Positions 3,802 through 63,860 of a DNA stretch of 64,000 nt are shown piece by piece. How positions within the stretch are numbered: position 1 is the stretch's first letter; each line of letters opens with the position of its first letter. The notes below the pieces were generated by a model. The model did no database searches. It had not been told where the DNA came from and worked only from the letters and a program-made list of their open reading frames with translations. The stretch lies in assembly GCA_035508155.1 (NCBI GenBank), contig DATJNM010000019.1:10488-74487 (forward strand). The letters are read 5' to 3'. This stretch comes from Candidatus Sulfopaludibacter sp. (lineage in GTDB: Bacteria > Verrucomicrobiota > Verrucomicrobiia > Limisphaerales > UBA11358). The translations under genes were made by a program, and so were the position numbers.

Positions 3802-3975
3802 GGATGGAGCCGACTCACGTCGGCCGTTACCCACCCAGGCCTGCCCAATTCCAGCTTCATCCGTGGTTGATAATCCCCTTCCCGTCTCGACAATGGCGAA
3901 ATTTTTCCTAGATTGTTGGAATGTCGTTTGACTGGCATGGTCGAAAATCCGCCAATCGTAGATCGTAAATCATAA

Positions 3976-4755
3976 ATGAATGAGCCGTTGGTCATCGCCG
4001 GCAGAAGTTTCCGGTCGCGCCTGATCCTGGGCACGGGAAAATTTTCGTCGCCGGACGCCATGCGCGACGCCCTCGACGCCAGCGGCGCGGAATTGGTCAC
4101 CGTCGCCCTGCGCCGCGCCGATCTGTCCGGGAAGCACGATCCGTTCGCGAATATTCTGGAATTCATTGACCCGAAGAAATATCTCCTGCTGCCCAATACC
4201 AGCGGCGCGATGAACGCGGAAGAAGCCGTCCGGCTCGCGCGCCTGGCCGCCGCCGCCGGCTTGCCGAAATGGGTCAAACTCGAAATCCATCCCGACCCGC
4301 GCTATCTGCTCCCGGATCCGGTGGAAACATTCCGGGCCGCCGAAATGCTGGTGAAGGAAGGATTCACCGTACTGCCTTACATCAACGCCGATCCGGTGCT
4401 GGCCAAGCGGTTGCAGGACGCCGGTTGCGCGACGGTGATGCCGCTCGGCTCGCCCATCGGTTCAAATCGCGGCATCCAGACGCGCGACCAAATTCGCATC
4501 ATCATCGAGCAGGCCACAGTGCCCGTGGTCGTGGATGCCGGTCTCGGCGCGCCCAGCCACGCCGCCGAGGCGATGGAGATGGGCGCCGACGCCGTGCTCG
4601 TCAACACCGCCATTGCCGTTTCGAGCGATCCGAACCGCATCGCGGTTGCCTTCAAAACCGCGGTCGAAGCCGGACGCACCGCCTATGAAACCGGGCTGGC
4701 CGCGCAACAGGAGGCCGCCAGCGCCACCAGCCCGCTAACAGCATTTCTGGATTAG
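3976..4755 (+). CDS. thiG: Thiazole synthase ThiG
   Basis: 259 aa. The N-terminus [19 protein letters not shown], then VTVALRR, LLPNTSG and the overall length are typical of ThiG. Confidence 0.95.
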
Positions 4756-29047: not shown

Positions 29048-29082
29048 ATTTGCGATTTCGGATTTGCGATTTGCGATTTTTT
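29048..29082. repeat. Tandem heptanucleotide repeat (ATTTGCG)-like, 5 units
   Basis: atttgcg atttcgg atttgcg atttgcg atttttt, located 70 nt upstream of the rarA ATG. Confidence 0.9.
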
Positions 29083-33455: not shown

Positions 33456-34325
33456 ATGAGCCGGGATTTTCTCCACCGCCTGCGTACGCTGGTGATTTTG
33501 GGGCGGGTGTCGAACCTGCCGACGGTGTGGTCGAACTGCCTGGTCGGCTGGCTGCTCGGTGGCGGAGGAAATTACGCCAATCTCCCCTGGTTATTCTTCG
33601 GCATCACCGCGCTGTACCTCGGCGGCATGTTTTTGAACGACGCATTTGACGCGGACTTCGACCGACAACATCGCCCGGAACGGCCGATCCCTTCCGGCGC
33701 GATTTCGCTGCCGGCGGTCTGGGGCTGGGGACTGGTTTGGCTGGTTCCGGGCACGTTGAGCTTGATTATGATCGGGAAGACGACCGGCGCCCTGGCGCTC
33801 GTGTTGCTGCTGTGCATCGTCCTTTACGACGCCACGCATAAAGTCATCACCGCCTCACCCTGGTTGATGGGCGCATGCCGGTTCTGGGTTTATGTCATCG
33901 CCGCCTCCTGTGCCAGTTGGGGTGTGAACGGCTGGCCGATCTGGTGCGGCGCAGCGCTGGGAATCTACGTCGCCGGCTTGAGCCACGTCGCGCAGTTGGA
34001 AAGCTTGCGCGGAAGGGTTCCTTATTGGCCCCTGATTCTGCTGTCCGCGCCGGTCGTGTTGGCCCTGTTGATGGATGCCGGAGAAAACCGCGTTTCGGGC
34101 CTCTGGCTGTCGCTGGTGCTGGTGCTCTGGAGCGCGCGTTGTGTCCGAACCATTTTTCAGGGAGGCGCCGTGAACGTGGGCCGAATCGTTTCCGGCCTGC
34201 TGGCGGGAATTGTGTTGGTGGACTGGCTGGCCGTTGCGCCGGGTTGTCCGACTGCGTTGAGCGCGGTGTTTTTAATCCTGTTCGGCGCCACGTTGGGACT
34301 GCAACGATTCGTGCCGGCAACGTGA
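33456..34325 (+). CDS. eboC: UbiA-family prenyltransferase (EboC-like)
   Basis: The ORF runs from TTG 33444, with an ATG at 33456. It has about 8 TM segments, and the Asp-rich motif NDAFDADFDRQHRPERPIPSG is typical of UbiA prenyltransferases. It lies immediately after the eboE-like gene. Confidence 0.6.
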   Translation: MSRDFLHRLRTLVILGRVSNLPTVWSNCLVGWLLGGGGNYANLPWLFFGITALYLGGMFLNDAFDADFDRQHRPERPIPSGAISLPAVWGWGLVWLVPGTLSLIMIGKTTGALALVLLLCIVLYDATHKVITASPWLMGACRFWVYVIAASCASWGVNGWPIWCGAALGIYVAGLSHVAQLESLRGRVPYWPLILLSAPVVLALLMDAGENRVSGLWLSLVLVLWSARCVRTIFQGGAVNVGRIVSGLLAGIVLVDWLAVAPGCPTALSAVFLILFGATLGLQRFVPAT

Positions 34326-34331
34326 AAAGCT

Positions 34332-34366
34332 AAGGCCGAAGGCTGAACGCTAAAGGCTTGAGAAAT
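34332..34366 (+). repeat. Upstream heptad-periodic arm of four-helix-bundle cassette A
   Basis: aaggccg aaggctg aacgcta aaggctt gagaaat, then ATG at 34367. It is complementary to 34744-34771. Confidence 0.8.
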
Positions 34367-34745
34367 ATGAACGAACAGGCGAAGGATTTAAAAATACGAA
34401 CAAAGGCGTTTGCGCTTCGGGTCATTCGTATGTACTCCAAACTGCCCGGGAACAACGCGGTCGCACAGGTGCCCGGCCGGCAGGTCTTGCGTTCGGGAAC
34501 GGCGGTCGGTGCAAATTATCGCGAAGCCTCCCGCACCCGCTCCCAAGCCGAGTTCATTTCCAAGACAGGCGACTGTCTCAAAGAAATTGATGAAGCCGAA
34601 TATTGGCTGGAATTGATCGTGGATAGTGGCTGTATTCCAGCCGGCCGAATGGCCGAACTGCTTGATGAAGCACGGGCAACTCATCGCAATATTTGCGACC
34701 ATCGACAAAAGAGCCAAAGGCCAAAATGCCGACTCCAGCATTTAG
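34367..34745 (+). pseudogene. Four-helix-bundle protein (23S rRNA IVS protein/Avd family) with an apparent +1 frameshift at G-run 34674-34676
   Basis: MNEQAKDLKIRTKAFALRVIRMY..QVLRSGTAVGANYREA..SQAEFISK...EIDEAEYWLELI fits the family. After ..LLDEAR the annotated frame reads ATHRNICDHRQ... to 34786. Skipping one G gives QLIAIFATIDKRAKGQNADSSI followed by a stop at 34743-34745, which is the expected family ending, for a total of 125 aa. Confidence 0.7.
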
Positions 34746-34771
34746 CCTTTAGAATTCGGCCTTTGCTTTCC
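34744..34771 (+). repeat. Downstream heptad-periodic arm of cassette A
   Basis: agccttt agaattc ggccttt gctttcc. agccttt pairs with aaaggct (34352-34358) and cggcctt pairs with aaggccg (34332-34338). Confidence 0.75.
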
Positions 34772-34823
34772 ACAAGCTTCGCTTGAACAGCCAATCATCC
34801 TCGGTTATTTTGGTTGTTCGTAT

Positions 34824-36605
34824 ATGAACATAGAAGGCTTGAACAGCTTTCCAGACCAGGTTAGCGGCCTTTCTGCAGCCGGCAAACCCGTTACACCGCA
34901 ACCGGGTTTCCGGGCAGAAAGGGAACTGACGCACAACGAAGAGATTAAGGAAGCGATTCCCACGCTCGCGGGCACCATCGCGTCCACGCTGGCCAACCCG
35001 GGCGCCGACACGTTCTCCGGCGATGACGCCCAATTCCTGAAATTTCACGGTGTTTATCCGCAGGACGACCGCGATCTGCGTTCGGCGGCCGGCCGGAAAT
35101 ACATCATGATGGTCCGCAGCCGCATTCCCGGCGGCGTGATGACCGCCAACCAGTGGCGTGTGTTCGACGAACTGGCGTGGCTTTACGGCAATAATACGCT
35201 GCGCATCACCACCCGCCAGACCATCCAGTTTCACGGCGTCGTCAAGGCGAACCTGCGTCTGGTGGTCAAAAAAATCAACGAGTGCCTGCTCTCCACGCTC
35301 GCGGCTTGCGGCGACGTGAACCGCAACGTGCTCGCGCCGCCCACGCCCGCGTACACCCGGGCGCGTGATGAAGTCTATCGCGATTGCGTGCGGGTGGCGA
35401 ACGCGCTCAAGCCGCAGACCCGCGCCTATTACGCCATCTGGATCGACGGTTTCCAGCTCAAGATTGACGACCCGTTCAACCAGGCGTTCGTTGATCCACT
35501 TTACGGCAAGGCGTATTTGCCGCGAAAATTCAAAACCGCGTTCGTTATCCCGCCGGTGAATGACCTCGACGTTTTCACCAACGACCAGGGCTTCATCGCG
35601 GTGGTGGAAAGCGAAAAACTGTTAGGTTACAACCTCGTCGTCGGCGGCGGCATGGGACGCACGCACGGTAACCAGCAAACTTACCCGCGGCTGGCGAGCG
35701 AACTCGGATTTATCACGCCGGACAAATTGATTGAGGTTGCCAAAGCCGTGCTGACGATTCACCGCGACTACGGCGACCGCACCGACCGCAAGCACGCGCG
35801 CTTCAAATATGTCGTCGAAGAGCGTGGCGTGGATTGGACGCGCGCCGAGGTTGAGAAGCGAGCCGGCATCAAATTTGCGCCGATCCGGCCTTACCGGTTC
35901 ACGACGACGGCCGATTTGCTCGGCTGGCACAAATCCGTGGATGGAAAGAATTTCTTCACGCTGTTCGTCCAAACCGGCCGCGTGAAGAACGAAAAAAAGA
36001 TCGCGCTGCGCGAAATCGCGGAGAAATTTCCGCACCTCGGATTCCACCTGACCACGAATCAGAATGTGATTCTCGCCAACGTGAACGATGCGGACCAAGC
36101 CGGCATCAATTCGATTTTTGCGGCGCACAAAATTCCCGTTGAAAATCAGGCGCGCGTTTTGCACGCGGTCGCGATGGCCTGTCCCGCCCTGCCCACCTGC
36201 GGCCTGGCCCTCGCCGAATCCGAACGGATATTGCCCGGGCTCATTGACCGCATCGAAAAACTCTGCGGCGATCTGGGACTCGGTGACGAGGAGATCATCA
36301 TCCGTTCGACCGGTTGCCCGAACGGTTGCGCCAGGCCGTACCTGGCGGAAATCGGATTCGTCGGCAAAGCGCCGGGACGTTATCAACTTTGGCTCGGCGG
36401 CAATGTTTCCGGCACGCGCCTCAACCGCGTGTGGAAGGAAACCGTCAAAGACCCCGACATCGAGAATGAATTACGGCCGGTGCTCGCCCGCTATGCCAAG
36501 GAACGCAATCCGGGCGAACGTTTCGGCGACTGGTGCGACCGGGAGTTGTGGCCGGAAAAGCCGGCCGCGGTCAACCCGGTGGCCGATCCCATTCCAGCTC
36601 CATGA
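34824..36605 (+). CDS. cysI: Assimilatory sulfite reductase hemoprotein subunit
   Basis: 593 aa and collinear with E. coli CysI. Matches include FLKFHGVYPQDDRD, LRITTRQTIQFHGV, YLPRKFKTAFVIPP, NRTDRKHARFKY and the siroheme/4Fe-4S motif TGCPNGCARPYLAEIGFVGKAPGRY. Confidence 0.92.
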   Translation: MNIEGLNSFPDQVSGLSAAGKPVTPQPGFRAERELTHNEEIKEAIPTLAGTIASTLANPGADTFSGDDAQFLKFHGVYPQDDRDLRSAAGRKYIMMVRSRIPGGVMTANQWRVFDELAWLYGNNTLRITTRQTIQFHGVVKANLRLVVKKINECLLSTLAACGDVNRNVLAPPTPAYTRARDEVYRDCVRVANALKPQTRAYYAIWIDGFQLKIDDPFNQAFVDPLYGKAYLPRKFKTAFVIPPVNDLDVFTNDQGFIAVVESEKLLGYNLVVGGGMGRTHGNQQTYPRLASELGFITPDKLIEVAKAVLTIHRDYGDRTDRKHARFKYVVEERGVDWTRAEVEKRAGIKFAPIRPYRFTTTADLLGWHKSVDGKNFFTLFVQTGRVKNEKKIALREIAEKFPHLGFHLTTNQNVILANVNDADQAGINSIFAAHKIPVENQARVLHAVAMACPALPTCGLALAESERILPGLIDRIEKLCGDLGLGDEEIIIRSTGCPNGCARPYLAEIGFVGKAPGRYQLWLGGNVSGTRLNRVWKETVKDPDIENELRPVLARYAKERNPGERFGDWCDRELWPEKPAAVNPVADPIPAP

Positions 36606-37264
36606 CCGCTGATCAAATCGTCGAAGCCAACGCCGGCTTGCGGAGCAGGCCGCCGTTGGAAATTGTGCGCTGGGCCATTGCCCAGGCCAATGGGCGGGCG
36701 CTGGTTTCGACCAATTTTCGCCCGTACGAAGCGGTGATTTTGCATTTATGCGCGCAGGTGCAACCGGATATTCCGGTGCTGTGGGTGGACCACGGTTACA
36801 ATCGTCCGGCCACTTACAAACACGCCGAGGCATTGAAAAAAATGCTTCGCTTGAACCTGAAAGCCTATCTGCCGAGGATTTCCGCCGCGCATCACGACGC
36901 CATCCACGGCGACCTTCCGTCCACCGATGACGAAGCTGGTTTGAAACGGTTCAGCGCGTTGATGAAGCTGGAGCCGTTCCAGCGCGGCATGAAGGAACTG
37001 GCGCCGGCGGTCTGGATCACCGCATTGCGTAAAGTCCAAAATCCGAACCGCGCCGGCCTTGATATCGTTTCCGAGGACAAGAATTTTGGTGCGCTCAAGG
37101 TCAGCCCGGTTTTTTATTGGACCGACGCGGACATGGAGGATTACCTGAGGCAGCACCATCTGCCCAACGAATGGGACTATTTTGATCCGGCCAAGGCCGA
37201 CGACAAGCGCGAATGCGGTTTGCATGCGACCTGGGGGTCGCAGGCTCTTGGATCTGGGATCTAA
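36602..37264 (+). CDS. cysH: Phosphoadenosine phosphosulfate reductase (Fe-S-less type)
   Basis: The ATG at 36602 overlaps the cysI stop (ATGA). The C-terminal ECGLH is present. The CC and CxxC Fe-S cysteines of APS reductases are absent: FSALMKLEP stands in place of CC..K.EP, and there is no GCxPCT. Confidence 0.88.
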   Translation: MTADQIVEANAGLRSRPPLEIVRWAIAQANGRALVSTNFRPYEAVILHLCAQVQPDIPVLWVDHGYNRPATYKHAEALKKMLRLNLKAYLPRISAAHHDAIHGDLPSTDDEAGLKRFSALMKLEPFQRGMKELAPAVWITALRKVQNPNRAGLDIVSEDKNFGALKVSPVFYWTDADMEDYLRQHHLPNEWDYFDPAKADDKRECGLHATWGSQALGSGI

Positions 37265-37306
37265 GACAACGACATGGACGCGTACCTATCGGTTAAAATT
37301 CATTTG

Positions 37307-37343
37307 GAATCCGTGTTCATCCGTGTTCATCTGTGGTTAAATC
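37307..37343. repeat. Decamer-periodic tract abutting the cysD start
   Basis: gaatccgtgttc atccgtgttc atctgtggtt aaatc, ending 6 nt before GTG 37350. The core ttcatctgtggtt recurs as ttcatccgtggtt at 3857-3869. Confidence 0.8.
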
Positions 37344-37349
37344 TTTGAA

Positions 37350-38252
37350 GTGAACAGTTACCATCTGGACCATTTGCAGTACCTGGAAACCGAAGCGATT
37401 CACATCATGCGCGAAGTCGCGGCGGAATTCGAGCGCCCGGCCCTGCTCTTCTCCGGCGGCAAGGATTCCATTTCCCTGCTGCGCCTGGCCGAAAAGGCAT
37501 TCCGTCCGTCCGACATTCCCATGCCGCTGCTGAACATTGATACCGGACACCACTTCCCCGAATTGAACGAATTCCGCGACCGGCGCGCCAAAGAACTGGG
37601 CGCCAAACTCATCGTCCGCAAGGTTGAAGACGCCATCGCCAAGGGCATCGCGGTGCCGCGACCCGGCGAAATCAGCCGCAATCAGTTGCAAATCCCGACG
37701 CTGCTGGCGGCGGTCGAGGAGTTTCAGTTCGATTGTCTGATTGGCGGCGCGCGGCGCGACGAGGAAAAGGCCCGCGCCAAGGAGCGCTTCTTCAGTTTCC
37801 GCGACAGTTTCGGCCAATGGGACCCGAAAAATCAGCGGCCCGAAATCTGGAATATTTACAACGCGCGCGTCAATCCGGGCGAACACATGCGCGTCTTTCC
37901 GCTTTCGAACTGGACGGAAATGGATGTGTGGGAATACATCAAACGCGAGCAACTGGCCGTGCCGGCGATTTATTTCAGTCACCAGCGAAAATGTGTCCGC
38001 CGCAACGGTCAGTGGCTGCCCGTCTCCGATTTGCTGCCGCCCAAGGGCACGGAACCGGTGAAGGAGCTGGTCGTCCGCGTCCGCACCATCGGCGACATTA
38101 TCAGCACCGGCATGGTCGAGTCGCCGGCGGATTCCGTGGACGACATCATTGCTGAAATCGCCGCCGCCCGCGTCACCGAACGCGGCTCCCGCGCCGATGA
38201 CAAGGCCAGCGAAGCGGCGATGGAGGATCGCAAGAAAGCCGGATACTTTTAA
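37350..38252 (+). CDS. cysD: Sulfate adenylyltransferase subunit 2
   Basis: GTG start. LDHLQYLETEAIHIMREVAAEF..PALLFSGGKDS (PP-loop) and the 300-aa length fit CysD. Confidence 0.93.
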   Translation: MNSYHLDHLQYLETEAIHIMREVAAEFERPALLFSGGKDSISLLRLAEKAFRPSDIPMPLLNIDTGHHFPELNEFRDRRAKELGAKLIVRKVEDAIAKGIAVPRPGEISRNQLQIPTLLAAVEEFQFDCLIGGARRDEEKARAKERFFSFRDSFGQWDPKNQRPEIWNIYNARVNPGEHMRVFPLSNWTEMDVWEYIKREQLAVPAIYFSHQRKCVRRNGQWLPVSDLLPPKGTEPVKELVVRVRTIGDIISTGMVESPADSVDDIIAEIAAARVTERGSRADDKASEAAMEDRKKAGYF

Positions 38253-38254
38253 TC

Positions 38255-38282
38255 GGAGATGGGAGTTCGGAGATGGGAGATC
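38255..38282 (+). repeat. Upstream heptad-periodic arm of four-helix-bundle cassette B
   Basis: ggagatg ggagttc ggagatg ggagatc, starting 3 nt after the cysD stop and ending 6 nt before ATG 38289. It is complementary to 38664-38691. Confidence 0.85.
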
Positions 38283-38288
38283 GAAAAT

Positions 38289-38657
38289 ATGGCTACGCCA
38301 CGGTCATTTGAAGATTTGGAAGCTTGGGAGGCCGCTCGTGAGTTGACCAACAAAGCTTATCAGCTCTCGCGTCGCGAGCCGTTGTCTCACGACTTCGGAT
38401 TATGTGACCAGCTTCGCCGCGCCGCGCTTTCGGTGATGAACAACAGCGCCGAAGGTTGGGAAAGCCTTCATCTCGCCGAGAAAAAGCAATTTTACAATTG
38501 GGCGCGACGCTCTTGTGGCGAAGGCCGCTCCATGAGTTACGTTTTGCCCGACAATAAATTCATCACAAGTGAAGAACAACAGACTTTGTTAAAATTTTGT
38601 ATGCGCTCCGGCAAACTCGTCAGTGGTCTGATCCGTTCGCTGGACAACCGCAATTAA
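38289..38657 (+). CDS. Four-helix-bundle protein (23S rRNA IVS protein/Avd family)
   Basis: MATPRSFEDLEAWEAARELTNKAYQLS....DQLRRAALSVMNNSAEG...KKQFYNWARRSCGE... The 122-aa length and helix pattern fit the TIGR02436/PF05635-type family. Confidence 0.8.
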   Translation: MATPRSFEDLEAWEAARELTNKAYQLSRREPLSHDFGLCDQLRRAALSVMNNSAEGWESLHLAEKKQFYNWARRSCGEGRSMSYVLPDNKFITSEEQQTLLKFCMRSGKLVSGLIRSLDNRN

Positions 38658-38663
38658 ACCCGA

Positions 38664-38691
38664 ACTCCCATCTGCCATCTCCCATCTCACA
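38664..38691 (+). repeat. Downstream heptad-periodic arm of cassette B
   Basis: actccca tctgcca tctccca tctcaca. Its reverse complement aligns with the upstream arm at about 24/30 positions. It ends 5 nt before the cysN ATG at 38697. Confidence 0.85.
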
Positions 38692-38696
38692 AATAA

Positions 38697-40016
38697 ATGT
38701 CCCATACTCAACATCCTGTCGAAATTCTGCGCCTGAACACTTGTGGTTCGGTGGACGACGGCAAATCCACGCTCATCGGCCGCCTGCTCTACGATTCCAA
38801 AAACCTGATGGAGGACCAGTTGGAAGCGCTGGAACGCTCCGCCGACATCACCGGCGGCGGCCAGATTAATCTGGCCAATCTCACCGACGGTCTCCGCGCC
38901 GAACGCGAGCAAGGCATCACGATTGACGTTGCTTACCGGTACTTCGCCACGCCCAAGCGCAAGTTCATCGTCGCCGACACCCCCGGCCACGTCCAATACA
39001 CGCGCAACATGGTCACCGGCGCCTCCACGGCGAACCTTTCCATCGTGCTGGTGGACGCACGCCAGGGCGTCACCGAACAAACCCGCCGCCATACCTATCT
39101 GGCGGCATTGCTGGGCATTCCCCACCTCGTCATCGCCATCAACAAAATGGATCTGGTGGACTGGAGCGAAGAACGTTTTTTGGAGATTCGCGACGAGATC
39201 GAGGATTTCATCCCGAAACTCGACGTGTTCCGCGATGTCAAATTCATTCCGCTCAGCGCACTCAACGGCGACAACGTCGTCATGCCGTCAACCCAAATGC
39301 CGTGGCACGAAGGCCCGGCGTTGCTGGGCCATCTGGAGACGGTGCACATCGCCAGCGACTGGAACCTCAATGCGTTCCGGTTCCCGGTGCAATGGGTCAA
39401 TCGCCCGAACAATCCCCGTGACCCGAAGTTGCACGATTTTCGGGGCTTGAGCGGACAAATCGCCGGCGGCATCGCCCGCAAAGGTCAGACGGTTATTGTG
39501 CTGCCCACCGGTTTAAAGACGACCATCAGGGATATCTGGACCTACGACGGGGTGCTGGCCGAGGCCTTCTGTCCGCAATCCGCCACGCTTTGCCTGGCCG
39601 ATGACATTGACGTGAGCCGCGGCGACATGATTGTGGGCCTGGAAAATCTTCCCGGTTGCGGCTCGGATCTGCACGCGCGCATTTGCTGGATGCACCAACG
39701 ACCGCTGCAATCCGGCCGGAAATTTTACCTCAAGCATACCACCCAGACTGCGCAGGCCGTCGTCACCGGCCTGGAAAGCCGCATCAACATGGCCACATTC
39801 GAACCGGAACCGGAACCGCCGGCGTTGGCCATCAACGACATCGGCGTGATTCGCCTGAAAACTTCCAAACCGATCGTGTTTGATGGTTACAGCACAAACC
39901 GGCTGACCGGTTCATTCATTTTGATCGAGCATGGCACGAACGCAACCATCGCCGCCGGCATGCTGTCCCCGCCCACCGAAGCCGTGAAACCGGAGTATAC
40001 CGACTTCGCCATTTAA
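38697..40016 (+). CDS. cysN: Sulfate adenylyltransferase subunit 1 (GTPase), without a fused APS-kinase domain
   Basis: G1 motif CGSVDDGKSTLIGRLL, then DTPGH and NKMD. At 439 aa it is too short for a CysNC fusion. Confidence 0.93.
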   Translation: MSHTQHPVEILRLNTCGSVDDGKSTLIGRLLYDSKNLMEDQLEALERSADITGGGQINLANLTDGLRAEREQGITIDVAYRYFATPKRKFIVADTPGHVQYTRNMVTGASTANLSIVLVDARQGVTEQTRRHTYLAALLGIPHLVIAINKMDLVDWSEERFLEIRDEIEDFIPKLDVFRDVKFIPLSALNGDNVVMPSTQMPWHEGPALLGHLETVHIASDWNLNAFRFPVQWVNRPNNPRDPKLHDFRGLSGQIAGGIARKGQTVIVLPTGLKTTIRDIWTYDGVLAEAFCPQSATLCLADDIDVSRGDMIVGLENLPGCGSDLHARICWMHQRPLQSGRKFYLKHTTQTAQAVVTGLESRINMATFEPEPEPPALAINDIGVIRLKTSKPIVFDGYSTNRLTGSFILIEHGTNATIAAGMLSPPTEAVKPEYTDFAI

Positions 40017-40017
40017 T

Positions 40018-40086
40018 CCTGAGGGGGGACGATTTCTGCGGTCACAGGATTTCAGGCACTCGTGCAACTCGTCCCTCCGAATTTGT
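40018..40086 (-). repeat. REP-like nested-hairpin element, copy R2 (inverted relative to R1)
   Basis: ...gaggggggacgatttctgcggtcacaggatttcaggcactcgtgcaactcgtccctccgaattt aligns with the reverse complement of R1 at roughly 75-80% identity. Confidence 0.7.
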
Positions 40087-40142
40087 GTTTGAAGCGAAAG
40101 AGTTGACGGCGCGCGCCTTTCGGCAGATGCTTCCGCGCTGGA

Positions 40143-43100
40143 ATGATGAAGGCAGACTTTGGGAGTTCGCTTTTGCCCCGCCGACGCAAACTGGTTTATT
40201 GGGTTCTCGGCCTTCTGCTGTTCTATACCATTCTCGGCTTCCTCATCCTGCCGCCGATCGTCCGGGCCATTGCCGTCAAACAATTATCCCGGCAGCTTGA
40301 CCGGCAAGTTTCAATTGAAAAAATAAAAATCAACCCGTTCGTGCTCTCCACCTCCGTCCGTGGCCTGCTCATCAAGGACAGGGACGGCCAGCCGTTCATC
40401 TCATGGGACGAAGTCTATGTGAACTTCCAGCTTTCATCGTTCTTCGGCCACCCGTGGGTCTTCAGGGAAATCAGCGTGACCAAACCTTACGCGCGCGTGC
40501 AGGTGAACAAGGATTACACGCTGAATTTCTCGGATCTGGTCGCCAAACTCTCGACGAATGCGCCCGCCGCCGCGCCCGCCACGCCAGCCAAGCCGCTCGC
40601 GCTGCGCGTTGGCCGGCTCCAAATCACCGGCGCTGCCGCCTCGCTCGCCGACTTCACCACGCGCGAGCCGTTCCGGCGGACCATCGGCCCGCTTAACGTG
40701 ACGTTGGAGAATTTCCGCACCGACCCGGACAATAAAAATCCCTATTCGTTCGCCGGCACCACCGACGCGGGCGAACGATTCGCCTGGAACGGATTTTTTT
40801 ACCTGGACCCGCTCCGTTCCCAGGGCGAGTTGACCCTCGACGACCTCACGCTCAACAAATACGCACCGCTCTACCAGGACTTCGTGCGCTTTGAAATCCG
40901 CAGCGGCGTGATCGGGGTGAAGTCGGATTACCGTTTCGAGCTCAGCGCCAGCAACCGGGTTGCCGCCGTCACCAACACCGACTTCTCCCTGCGCAATTTC
41001 AGACTCGGCAGCCCCGGCGATACCAACAACATCGTTGAACTGGCGCACTTTGCCGTGACCGGGGCGAGCGTGGACCTGGAAGCGCGACAGGCCGAAGTGG
41101 ATTCAGTTTCCGCCGAGGGCGCCAGACTGTTTGTGCGGCGCAACAAAGACGCCACGATCAACGCCCTGGAAGCCGCCAGGCCGGTTGCGAACGAGACGAA
41201 CCCGCCCGGCGGCATTTTGCTGCTGCTGCGCTCGGTCACGAATGCCGTGGCGATGCTCCTCAACAGCACAAACCAGTGGAACGCGGCCGTCCACGACGTG
41301 AATTTCACCAACTGCGGATTGCACCTCGAAGACCTTGTGAATTCGCGCCCGGCCCGGCTGGATTTGGACGACGTCACGCTCACCGCCAGGAATATTTCCA
41401 ACCGGCCGCATACCAATCTGACTGCCGAACTGTCCCTGCGCTGGAACACCAATGGCATCATCAACACGGAAATCGCCGCGTCCCTTTCCCCGCCGACCGC
41501 CGACATCCAGCTGTCACTCTCCAATCTCGATTTCGGCACGCTGGACCCCTATCTCGAACCCAAACTGAACCTGTTCATCCTCGGCAGCCGGCTCGGACTC
41601 GACGGCGACGTCCGTCTGCGCACGCCGGAAAACGAATTGCCGCAGGTCACGTTCACGGGCAATGCGCGGCTCGACGACTTTCGCACCGTGGACGGCGTCA
41701 TGGCGCAGGATTTGTTGAAGTGGGATTCGCTGCGGTTCAATGACATTGAGGCGAACCTGAATCCCCCAACCGTCGCCATCAAGGAAATCGCCCTCGACAA
41801 CGCCTGCGCGCGGGTTGTGATCGAAACCAATCACACGATTAACCTGCTGACGGCGTTGAACCCGGCCGAAACCAATGCGCCGGCCGCGAGCGTGGCAAAC
41901 GCCGCTAATTCTCAAACGGCCCGCGAGGACGCTCACCCCACCGTTACCCCGGCAAATACGGCCGCCGCGCTGCCGAAAATCTCCGTCGGCAACATCGTGA
42001 TTTCCAACGCCACCCTCAGTTACACGGACCGCTCGCTCACGCCCAATGTGCATCTGGCGGTGCTCCAGGCGGGCGGAACGATCGCGGGCATTTCCTCCGA
42101 GGAACTCCAACACGCCGACGTGAACCTGCACGCGGCCGTGGATGGCGTCGGACCGGTGGACATCACCGGCGAAATCAATCCGTTCAGCGGCACGGAAACC
42201 AACCATCTGGTGGTATCGGTGAAGGATGTGGATTTGACGCCGACCAGTCCCTACGCCGCCAAATTTGCCGGTTACCGCATCGCCATGGGCAAGCTGAATC
42301 TGGACCTCGTGTACAATCTGGTCGGGCAGAAATTACAGTCGAAAAATGTCATCACACTGGACCAGTTCACCTTTGGCGAACGGGTGGACAGTCCCGACGC
42401 GACGCATCTGCCCGTGCGGCTGGCGGTGGCCATCCTCAAGGACCGCGACGGAAAGATCGTTTTGGACGTGCCGGTGGAAGGCAGCCTGGACGATCCGAAA
42501 TTCCAGATCGGCAAGGTGGTTACCCGCGCCGTTGTCAATATCCTGACGAAAGTCGCCACGTCACCGTTCTCGTTGATTGGCGCGGCGTTCGGCGGCGGAG
42601 GCGAGGAATTGGGCTACCAGGACTTTGCTCCGGGCAGCGCACAGTTGACAACCGCCGACAAACAAAAACTTGATACCCTGGTCAAAGCCCTTTATGCCCG
42701 GCCCGGGTTGAACCTGGAAATTTCGGGCAGTGTCGACCCGATTGCCGACCGTGATGGATTGCAACGCGTCTTTCTCGAAAAACAGCTGCACACAAGGAAA
42801 TGGCTGTCGCTTCGCAAATCCCAGCAAGCCGCCCTGACACCGGAACAGATCACTCTGACGCCGGCGGAACGAGCGGATTTGGTGAAGAAGCTCTACAACG
42901 AAGCATGGACCAAAGGCCAAATCACGCCGGCCCTGCTCGCGGCAAATACGAATCTCACGGCGGCGGTGGCCCAGATCAACGCCCGGACACCGCGGATCCA
43001 AAAAGACGCGACGTTTCTGGTGAAAGGCCTGCCGGCTCCGGCGCCACCGACTTCCGGTGCGGGAACGGTCGCGCCTTCACAAATAAAACTTCCGCCGATC

Positions 43101-54161: not shown

Positions 54162-54659
54162 ACACGAATTGCGCGAATGAGCACGAATTGAAGTCACGAA
54201 GTGGCTGGCGACAATAGCCCACGGCTTCAGCCGTGGGTCAACCGTCCAAAATAATATCAAGCCCCGGAGGGGCGGCAGAATGTTCCATCACCCAATCCTT
54301 GAAGTCTCCGCCCTCTCAATTCCTTAATTTCTTCCGCCAGCTTTTCCGCCTGTTGCTGCAACTCCACGCTTTCCTGTTCCAGCAATTTGCTCCGCTCCGC
54401 TGCCAGTTCCTCCAGCACACCGGGTCGTTGCTCGACGATGCCGCACAGCTCGTATTCCGCGCTTTCCTTCAATTGCTCCAGCGATTCGATGACGGCGATG
54501 ACTTACAGTTGCAACGATTCATGGATGCAACCCCGTTGGGGTTGGAAATGTTTGTTGGCACGCCACCCGGCGTAGCCCGATTGCATCGGTCAACGCCGGG
54601 CTGATTTCCGTAGCGCCTTCAGCGCATTTTAAATTCGCGCCCATTCGCGAAATTCGTGT
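54162..54659. repeat. 498-bp segment bounded by 28-bp imperfect inverted repeats (MITE-like or degraded cassette)
   Basis: The left repeat is acacgaattgcgcgaatgagcacgaatt (54162-54189). The reverse complement of the right repeat (54632-54659) is acacgaatttcgcgaatgggcgcgaatt, matching at 25/28 positions. The interior holds short hairpins and only a 71-codon TTG-start ORF on the minus strand. Confidence 0.6.
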
Positions 54660-60506: not shown

Positions 60507-60587
60507 AGCTTTACACGGCCATCTCCCAACTCCGAGCTCCCATTTTCGCTCCACGAAAATCCTGTAGCCGACATTCTACTGACGACC
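60507..60587 (+). repeat. Heptad-core repeat element H1
   Basis: agctttacacggcc + catctcc caactcc gagctcc cattttc gctccac + gaaaatcctgtagccgacattctactgacgacc. It is homologous at both ends to 63724-63860. Confidence 0.75.
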
Positions 60588-63723: not shown

Positions 63724-63860
63724 AGCTTTACCCAGCCCTGTCTTCAATCTCCCATCTCGCATCTCCGAACTCTGTCCTCCGACCTCTGATTTCCGCCATC
63801 TTCAATCTTCGATCTTCCATCTTCGCTCCGCAAAAATGTAGCCGATAGTCCCCCGACGCC
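63724..63860 (+). repeat. Heptad-core repeat element H2 (expanded, 13 heptads)
   Basis: The left end is agctttacccagcc. The core 63741-63831 holds 13 consecutive 7-nt units (tcttcaa tctccca tctcgca tctccga actctgt cctccga cctctga tttccgc catcttc aatcttc gatcttc catcttc gctccgc). The right end is aaaaatgtagccgatagtcccccgacgcc. Confidence 0.8.

Follow-up and report, generated by a model that had tools for sequence, protein, structure and literature searches.

A four-helix-bundle gene between cysD and cysN enclosed by complementary heptad arms: a probable mRNA counterpart of ribosomal intervening sequences

Results

A small gene occupies the gap between cysD and cysN

In Candidatus Sulfopaludibacter sp. 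(Verrucomicrobiota), the genes for the two subunits of sulfate adenylyltransferase are separated by a four-helix-bundle (4HB) open reading frame (ORF) that lies between two complementary arrays of tandem heptanucleotides. We analysed this arrangement in a 64,000-nt stretch of DNA, referred to throughout as the window (GCA_035508155.1, contig DATJNM010000019.1, 10,488–74,487, forward strand). The small-subunit gene cysD (37350–38252, + strand; NF003587, E 5e-130; PF01507) and the large-subunit gene cysN (38697–40016, + strand; TIGR02034, E 6e-161) leave a gap of 444 nt (38253–38696) with a single ORF inside it (38289–38657, + strand), which is intact and encodes 122 aa. An initial annotation, made from the sequence alone, had described just such a gap filled by a 122-aa 4HB ORF, which we confirm. 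It had also assigned the ORF to the PF05635/TIGR02436 family, that of the 23S ribosomal RNA (rRNA) intervening sequence (IVS) proteins or S23p family. The assignment is borne out by profile hidden Markov model scores above the cut-offs (PF05635, E 9.8e-25, 87.3 bits against 33.8; TIGR02436 'four helix bundle protein', E 8e-23, 80.7 bits against 24), by a phmmer match to a solved S23p-family protein (XCC0516, PDB 2GSC; E 3e-8) and by the predicted fold. The AlphaFold (AF2) model, built as a monomer, consists of four long helices (pLDDT, the predicted local distance difference test, 80.4), and Foldseek aligns it with template-modelling (TM) scores of 0.81 to 2GSC, 0.75 to 2RLD (BT_0352) and 0.64 to Avd (4DWL).

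Complementary heptad arms enclose the gene

The upstream (5′) arm (38255–38283, + strand) is made of the heptads GGAGATG, GGAGTTC, GGAGATG and GGAGATC(G), the heptads proper spanning 38255–38282. The downstream (3′) arm (38661–38691, + strand), complementary to it, reads CGA followed by the heptads ACTCCCA, TCTGCCA, TCTCCCA and TCTCACA (38664–38691). Tandem Repeats Finder detects a period of 7 in both. The upstream heptads have the sequence originally given for them, with a small shift in position: they had been placed 3 nt after the cysD stop, whereas the first begins 2 nt past the TAA and it is the first paired base that lies 3 nt past the stop. Downstream, the four heptads do end 5 nt ahead of the cysN ATG, as proposed, and the CGA that opens the arm begins 3 nt past the ORF stop. 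Complementarity of the arms likewise stands, the claimed 24 of 30 positions being replaced by a best ungapped pairing of 38256–38283 with 38661–38688, in which 24 of 28 nt are complementary (86%). The motif GGAGATGGGAG, allowing one mismatch at most, occurs nine times in the window against 0.9 expected.

RNA folding of 38240–38710 yielded a minimum free energy (MFE) of −164.2 kcal/mol, compared with −137.8 ± 5.8 kcal/mol for 100 dinucleotide shuffles (z = −4.5), none of which was as stable as the native sequence. The long-range pairing of arm with arm appears in the MFE and centroid structures alike, so that the suggested geometry, with the ORF looped out on a stem, is supported by prediction; the arm stem is real and non-random. 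No promoter-like site was found by a scan across cysI–cysN, terminator-like sites there were not above shuffled-sequence frequency, and an Rfam search of 34000–41000 (E ≤ 1) returned no rRNA or other relevant RNA family. We treat the unit as a cassette, composed of a promoterless small 4HB gene and two inverted arrays of about four heptads.

That the arrangement is a chance resemblance, a generic simple repeat of intergenic DNA or what is left of a diversity-generating retroelement (DGR) is scarcely credible. ORF-less solo heptad arrays do occur in the window, and the DGR protein Avd has the same fold; the shuffle statistics and the control genes described below nevertheless rule out chance, no reverse transcriptase is found among the neighbours within 3 kb of the ORF (cysI, cysH, cysD, cysN and a DUF748 gene), and the TM score to Avd is below those to the S23p proteins 2GSC and 2RLD.

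The protein and its arms are conserved in relatives

Close homologues of the ORF number about 330, and all named ones come from metagenome-assembled genomes of Verrucomicrobiota. By looking up exact proteins and scanning both species-representative genomes and metagenomes we gathered 94 loci, in which the gene order is cysI, cysH, a first slot, cysD, a second slot and cysN. Among 61 distinct cysD–cysN spacers, 44 contain a 4HB ORF with arms, 10 other inserts and 6 short ORF-less sequence, and 1 is empty, counts that are skewed to filled sites, since it was by way of the 4HB protein that the loci were collected. Cassette ORFs are co-oriented with the cys genes in 129 of 129 hits. All orthologous copies share one arm design, (G[GA]AG[AT]TN)n upstream with its complement downstream, and in filled sites the cysD stop is separated from the stem by a median of 3 nt and the stem from the cysN ATG by a median of 7 nt. 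RNAalifold gives a weak consensus for 18 orthologous arm pairs (−10.5 kcal/mol).

The cysD–cysN slot copy is denoted hb and a 4HB copy between cysH and cysD, hb2. With omega at 0.08 over 39 intact orthologues of hb, compared with 0.10 for hb2, 0.06 for the GxxExxY gene described below and 0.11 for cysD, the 122-aa ORF is under strong purifying selection. Comparison of the loci shows entry of the cassette into the cysD–cysN spacer in an ancestor of this Verrucomicrobiota clade, followed by mostly vertical inheritance.

Flank complementarity is specific to cassettes

The cysH–cysD slot is filled in many relatives by hb2, a paralogue 58–68% identical, with arms of GGGTCTG/GGCGTCT upstream and CCCCAGA/CGCCAGA downstream, or GGGTAAT in one subclade. 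In other relatives it is filled by a GxxExxY/PDDEXK_3 ORF whose inverted arms have a 9-nt period (CACGGATT type; cassettes at L002:1620–2056, L008:8617–9056 and L012:8620–9056). Profile matches of one such ORF (L002:1654–2025; PF13366, E 2.5e-36; TIGR04256, E 1.7e-40) place GxxExxY in the PD-(D/E)XK nuclease superfamily. The period is 7 nt in all 4HB cassettes in which one is detectable and 9 nt in those of GxxExxY, and is thus specific to the ORF family.

The 60 nt on each side of a gene were paired with RNAduplex and compared with shuffles. Median duplex energies were −41.6 for hb (n = 39; shuffled −27.9, z −3.5), −48.9 for hb2 (n = 44; shuffled −34.6, z −3.1) and −36.3 for GxxExxY (n = 10; shuffled −19.7, z −4.3). 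Flanks of the control genes gave −22.6 for cysD (n = 53; shuffled −20.5, z −0.4) and −25.6 for cysH (n = 50; shuffled −27.1, z +0.5). Flank complementarity is therefore specific to the cassettes, and the operon genes cysD and cysH show none. Heptads vary from copy to copy (GGAGATN, GGGTCTG, GGGTAAT, CTNAAGG), each with a matching downstream complement; within a family, arms pair better with their own partner than with that of another copy (permutation p ≤ 4e-4), and between families pairing is weak. The arms co-vary as whole units, complementarity being kept while the sequence differs between copies.

A second cassette lies in the window itself. Its 5′ arm, of CTNAAGG heptads (34322–34362, + strand), starts at the stop codon of a UbiA-like gene, and its 3′ arm (34733–34773, + strand) lies upstream of cysI (34824–36605). 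Between them is a second PF05635/TIGR02436 ORF (34367–34744, + strand; E 9e-14 and 2e-18, respectively), probably frameshifted near 34676 when set against the intact L012 orthologue. These arms (41 nt, 33 complementary) emerged from an unbiased scan for inverted repeats 200–900 nt apart, which recovered the known cassettes; their stem is present in MFE and centroid folds (z −2.3), and they are unrelated to those between cysD and cysN. A tblastn search of the window with the 122-aa ORF returned only the self-match, the second 4HB copy being too divergent. Flanks of other family members had been expected to be self-complementary, 7-nt periodic and specific to each copy, and they are, in hb2, in this second cassette and in the plasmid copies with inverted arrays considered below.

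Cassettes are lost, replaced and decayed

When the junctions of relatives were compared for empty sites, one (L088) proved empty: the cysD TAA is followed by ttct and the cysN ATG, with neither cassette nor arms. In a CysD plus CysN tree L088 groups as sister to the window genome, inside a set of lineages that bear the 4HB gene; its cassette was therefore lost cleanly, together with both arms.

The spacing at these junctions bears on another account of the stem, in which it would provide long-range translational coupling with no cleavage. The cysN initiation region would be sequestered, and a ribosome at the cysD stop would unwind the lower stem or re-initiate across its base, restoring 1:1 coupling of CysD and CysN. 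This fits the mere 4 nt between cysD TAA and cysN ATG at the empty site, the short stop-to-stem and stem-to-ATG distances at filled ones, and a cysN leader that has no Shine-Dalgarno motif either in the window (...ATCTCACAAATAA-ATG) or across relatives (...CTCC[TG]AAAAA-ATG). The argument is purely geometric, however; the same arms are present where genes are uncoupled, both upstream of cysI after the UbiA-like gene and in 23S rRNA, and A:C mismatches (see Discussion) weaken the sense stem. We consider coupling alone an unlikely function of the stem, if a serious candidate.

Other relatives carry different material between cysD and cysN. ORF-less hairpins with other repeat units are found in three (CACGAAT in L069, GTTGAAN in L077, and L081). 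In L080, L093, L061, L060, L073, L059, L058 and L090 the spacer contains a palindrome like the repetitive extragenic palindromic (REP) sequences of Pseudomonas (GTAGGAGCCTGCTTGCAGGCGAC) or arm-less unrelated small ORFs of 79–283 aa. The spacer is a hot spot for insertions in general. Upstream of cysI the slot is similarly varied: it holds a full cassette in the window and in L012, CTGAAGG arms around a mere 30–40-nt loop in L010 and L092, a solo 3′ arm in L009 and a differing GTGACNN hairpin in L008, and is empty in L088, L093 and others. Such ORF-less hairpins and solo arms are decayed cassette copies. The idea of a mobile-cassette footprint, one of the options first suggested, draws support from these empty, replaced and decayed sites. 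The loci together show a 4HB protein kept by purifying selection in a unit that has at times been cleanly lost or replaced.

A motif upstream of cysI, AAGCyGCGCTTGAACA (about 34776–34792 in the window), is kept in every relative whether a cassette is present or not, and is likely to be a cys promoter or operator region.

Putative remnants are scattered elsewhere in the window. The 85-nt cysH–cysD spacer contains 2.7 copies of ATCCGTGTTC (37309–37335, + strand) that resemble the 3′ arm of GxxExxY cassettes, by which this slot is filled in L002, L008 and L012, and probably represent the remnant of a lost cassette. The last cysH codons (...LGSGI*; 37235–37264) are heptad-like, with the unit GGNTCTN of the hb2 arms that follow cysH in relatives. 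As the hb2 5′ arm spans the cysH stop in those relatives, arm sequence may have become part of the CysH C terminus. An inverted repeat of CACGAAT type (54162–54189 and 54632–54659; 28 nt, 25 complementary) encloses 440 nt in which we found no convincing ORF, only a minus-strand 71-aa coiled-coil-like frame and two small hairpins; it is possibly a decayed GxxExxY-type cassette. Solo arrays comprise AATCGTA ×3.4 (3954–3977) directly upstream of the start of a ThiG-like ORF, ATTTGCG ×4.6 (29048–29079) between divergent genes, and pyrimidine-rich ATCTCCC and ATCTTCA heptads at 63747–63825 and 60520–60560, both followed by a common motif, GCTCCnCgAAAAt..TGTAGCCGA. None of the arrays at 3954, 29048, 60520 and 63747 has a partner arm within 1 kb. 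Those at 3954–3977 and 29048–29079 may be remnants of lost cassettes.

Heptad arrays accompany 4HB genes in other phyla

All eight plasmid-borne 4HB genes sampled (Chloroflexota, Cyanobacteriota, Bacteroidota and Spirochaetota) lie within heptad arrays, of differing sequence, inverted in five cases and direct in three. A Nostoc plasmid gene is flanked by CAATTCG ×4.7 and its complement (duplex −67 kcal/mol, z −7), and across 40 kb of that plasmid no strong period-7 array occurs apart from this pair on either side of the 4HB gene. Plasmid GxxExxY genes (L103, L106 and L109; Bacteroides, Bernardetia and Treponema) are likewise bracketed by inverted arms; these are built on a CAC[GA]GA core, with several units in tandem in Bacteroides and Bernardetia and a single one in Treponema. 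The same core is common to the GxxExxY arms of Verrucomicrobiota. Plasmid cassette ORFs are co-directional with the housekeeping or defence genes between which they lie, such as fabD and fabG, a helicase and a methylase, or beside cas1. The loci L095, L096, L097, L101 and L107 comprise 4HB genes in defence contexts (helicase-4HB-N6 methylase, DUF1156-4HB-HEPN, and by cas1/cas2) and a GxxExxY gene between fabD and fabG.

These distributions make it very improbable that the ORF is a domesticated host gene of sulfate assimilation or its regulation, with the repeats as its regulatory sites. Long vertical retention in the cys operon and the low omega would suit such a gene. The same families and arm type occur, however, in unrelated operons (restriction or defence, CRISPR, fabD–fabG) on plasmids from other phyla; the closest relative, L088, has no such gene; unrelated ORFs take the same slot in other relatives, and the neighbouring slot alternates between 4HB and GxxExxY. 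We rejected a cys-specific regulator.

Discussion

A probable stem-loop cassette in messenger RNA

We regard it as probable, with moderate confidence, that the insert between cysD and cysN is an IVS-type stem-loop cassette that lives in mRNA instead of rRNA. In a polycistronic cys transcript the arms would pair into a stem of about 28 bp from which the ORF is looped out, and the cysD stop (3 nt off) and the cysN start (5–8 nt off) would be brought together, which is how an essential two-subunit operon would tolerate the insertion. The stem would most likely be a double-stranded RNase III site at which the loop is excised. A ribosome that terminates at cysD might also, or instead, melt the lower stem and expose the cysN start, and so bring back the coupling that the 4-nt ancestral junction implies.

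Several points weigh against this interpretation. We infer RNase III cleavage, coupling and even co-transcription of the cys genes. Mismatches in the arms, read on the sense strand, are A:C rather than G:U by 37 to 10 in hb and 59 to 19 in hb2, or 30 to 9 and 49 to 19 after dereplication, an approximately threefold excess of A:C. The complementary strand consequently forms the more stable hairpin: it folds better in 34 of 39 hb and 36 of 44 hb2 copies, with an advantage of 5–7 kcal/mol in about 85% of copies. This excess is opposite to what selection on a sense-RNA helix predicts; in hb2, though not in the cysD–cysN copies, it is partly explained by overlap of the 5′ arm with the last cysH codons and stop (TCTAGG). 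Compensatory changes are found in only 2 of the 18 orthologous arm pairs, and position-wise covariation among close orthologues is weak, the arms being too conserved and too ambiguous in register for a column-wise measure. On the plasmids of L097 (Pseudanabaena), L099 (Bernardetia) and L102 (Treponema) the heptads on either side of the 4HB gene are direct, so that no stem can form and the arrays may act without one. Strong purifying selection implies that the 4HB protein must be translated, which permanent sequestration or excision of the ORF start region would hinder. Finally, the occupancy counts come from loci selected for 4HB and biased to filled sites.

The asymmetry of mismatches, the direct repeats and the family-specific period keep alive a role at the level of DNA or of protein binding. 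On that view a small mobile or self-maintaining element would have the arms as its hairpin or cruciform ends, or as arrays to which protein binds, and the RNA stem would be incidental. The arms would serve in insertion, in clean excision or in binding by the encoded protein, and what maintains their complementarity would be templated repair, or slippage, across the hairpin and not selection on mRNA. Such an account would agree with the better folding of the bottom strand, with the clean loss of both arms in L088 and with the persistence of both after ORF deletion in L010 and L092. The CAC[GA]GA core shared across phyla hints at protein recognition, GxxExxY belongs to a nuclease superfamily, and ORF-less paired arrays in Geobacter have been read as DNA-binding sites (PMC2700814). 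Conversely, the cassette is accompanied by no transposase, integrase or reverse transcriptase, and there is no target-site duplication with respect to the empty site. The differences in heptads from copy to copy argue against a single trans-acting recogniser. All cassettes are co-oriented and their arms abut stop and start codons, as a constraint at the RNA level would give, and the arms of true IVSs are known to work as RNA stems (PMC4990558). On balance a purely DNA-level role seems to us a minority possibility, and we retain the mRNA stem-loop cassette as the preferred interpretation.

A possible wider class of cassettes

Finding a 4HB gene with complementary heptads between cysD and cysN implies that the type of element known as an rRNA IVS is also present in ordinary operons. 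More broadly, and only tentatively since we think it rather doubtful as a whole, the 4HB and GxxExxY genes with their family-specific arms (7 and 9 nt) could form an unrecognised, phylum-spanning class of stem-loop cassettes. These would colonise hairpin-tolerant positions in any abundant transcript, the IVSs of 23S rRNA being the special case noticed first. The stem would silence the cassette, through RNase III excision or by re-joining the cistrons, and the protein might recognise its own array, for example with one heptad per subunit of a pentamer. The Geobacter sites and some of the cyanobacterial repeats discussed below would then be decayed, MITE-like cassette remains (MITE, miniature inverted-repeat transposable element).

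The origin and purpose of rRNA IVSs and of their conserved ORF have posed a question since the early 1990s, and 4HB and GxxExxY are among the commonest 'hypothetical' small proteins in Bacteroidota, Cyanobacteriota, Verrucomicrobiota and others. Should a stem-loop unit of this kind be present in ordinary operons, IVSs could be studied as a general cassette type, for which nature provides a series running from empty and full to ORF-less and solo-arm states, and many polycistronic mRNAs may undergo RNase III processing at such sites. Annotators could flag such insertions instead of inferring a functional link to the host operon, and orphan intergenic heptamer arrays would gain a candidate origin. 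As an insert of 440 nt that separates the genes for two subunits of a single enzyme and that sister genomes either have or lack, the cassette offers a clean experimental handle.

Comparison with known systems

REP elements and BIMEs (bacterial interspersed mosaic elements), REPtrons (REP together with RAYT, a REP-associated tyrosine transposase) and MITEs are palindromic intergenic elements found inside operons. Like them, the cassettes exist as ORF-less copies beside gene-bearing ones with the same repeats, with possible effects on mRNA stability and differential expression; unlike them, the cassettes have no HUH transposase and no target-site duplication, and have copy-specific tandem 7- or 9-nt arms in place of a conserved palindrome. 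The arms do constitute terminal inverted repeats, as in a classical transposon or MITE. We rejected that identity, as there is no target-site duplication at the arm ends or with respect to the empty L088 site, and there are no near-identical copies within the 64-kb window. An integron gene cassette was also rejected: repeats lie on both sides of the ORF, as tandem heptads, where such a cassette would have one attC site 3′ of its ORF, and there is no integrase in the operon.

The STRR (short tandemly repeated repetitive) heptanucleotide sequences of cyanobacteria are reportedly dispersed intergenic tandem heptamers of unknown function, a description credited to Mazel et al. in 1990. Similarly, the sampled cyanobacterial plasmid 4HB genes are flanked by heptad arrays (CAATTCG, AATCGTA, CCCCAAT and TTTTAGA); we came across no account of arrays that pair around 4HB genes. 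Avd, the DGR protein, belongs to the same pentameric four-helix-bundle fold family; its ligand is structured RNA, and the template of a DGR lies between complementary segments (bioRxiv 10.1101/2023.10.23.563531). As a DGR remnant the cassette was rejected: no reverse transcriptase, template/variable repeat or long direct repeat is nearby, and the TM score is 0.64 to Avd against 0.81 to 2GSC.

Closer are the dozens of paired tandem 7–9-nt sites, about 100 nt apart, between operon genes of Geobacter metallireducens (PMC2700814), which were read as binding sites for IHF/HU or a global regulator (Aklujkar et al. 2009, PMC2700814). They too are opposite-strand array pairs between genes of an operon (proB and proA, moaA and mosC), of 3–5 units and in many copies per genome, and resemble the ORF-less hairpins of L010, L092, L077 and L081; unlike the cassettes they have no ORF, and they were not connected there with 4HB or GxxExxY genes. 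These ORF-less sites are the nearest precedent to the geometry, which the initial annotation had thought undescribed in an mRNA operon. We likewise found no description of IVS-type cassettes in such operons in the literature, coverage of which was incomplete, so that a prior description is possible.

The parallel with the IVSs of 23S rRNA (Leptospira, Coxiella burnetii, Xanthomonas, Brucella), drawn at the outset, holds best. The protein is of the same PF05635 family, with 2GSC as its best structural match, and the ORF is looped out by complementary flanks and co-oriented with the host transcript. In Coxiella burnetii the S23p ORF follows three to four tandem GACAGAT heptamers, whose copy number varies between strains, and RNase III excises the IVS within the stem, at the start of the repeats (PMC4990558); in the cassette, too, tandem heptamers adjoin the start of the ORF. 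The differences lie in the host, which for IVSs is helix 25 or 45 of 23S rRNA and here is the spacer of the cysD–cysN operon, and in the state of the ORF, which is decaying and probably untranslated in Coxiella but intact, with an omega of 0.08, between cysD and cysN. RNase III excision, demonstrated for the 23S IVSs, is for the cassette something we infer by analogy. The cassette has three features of an IVS, namely an S23p ORF, an enclosing stem and heptamers, and lacks the location in 23S rRNA by which an IVS is defined; it is best described as working like an IVS without being one.

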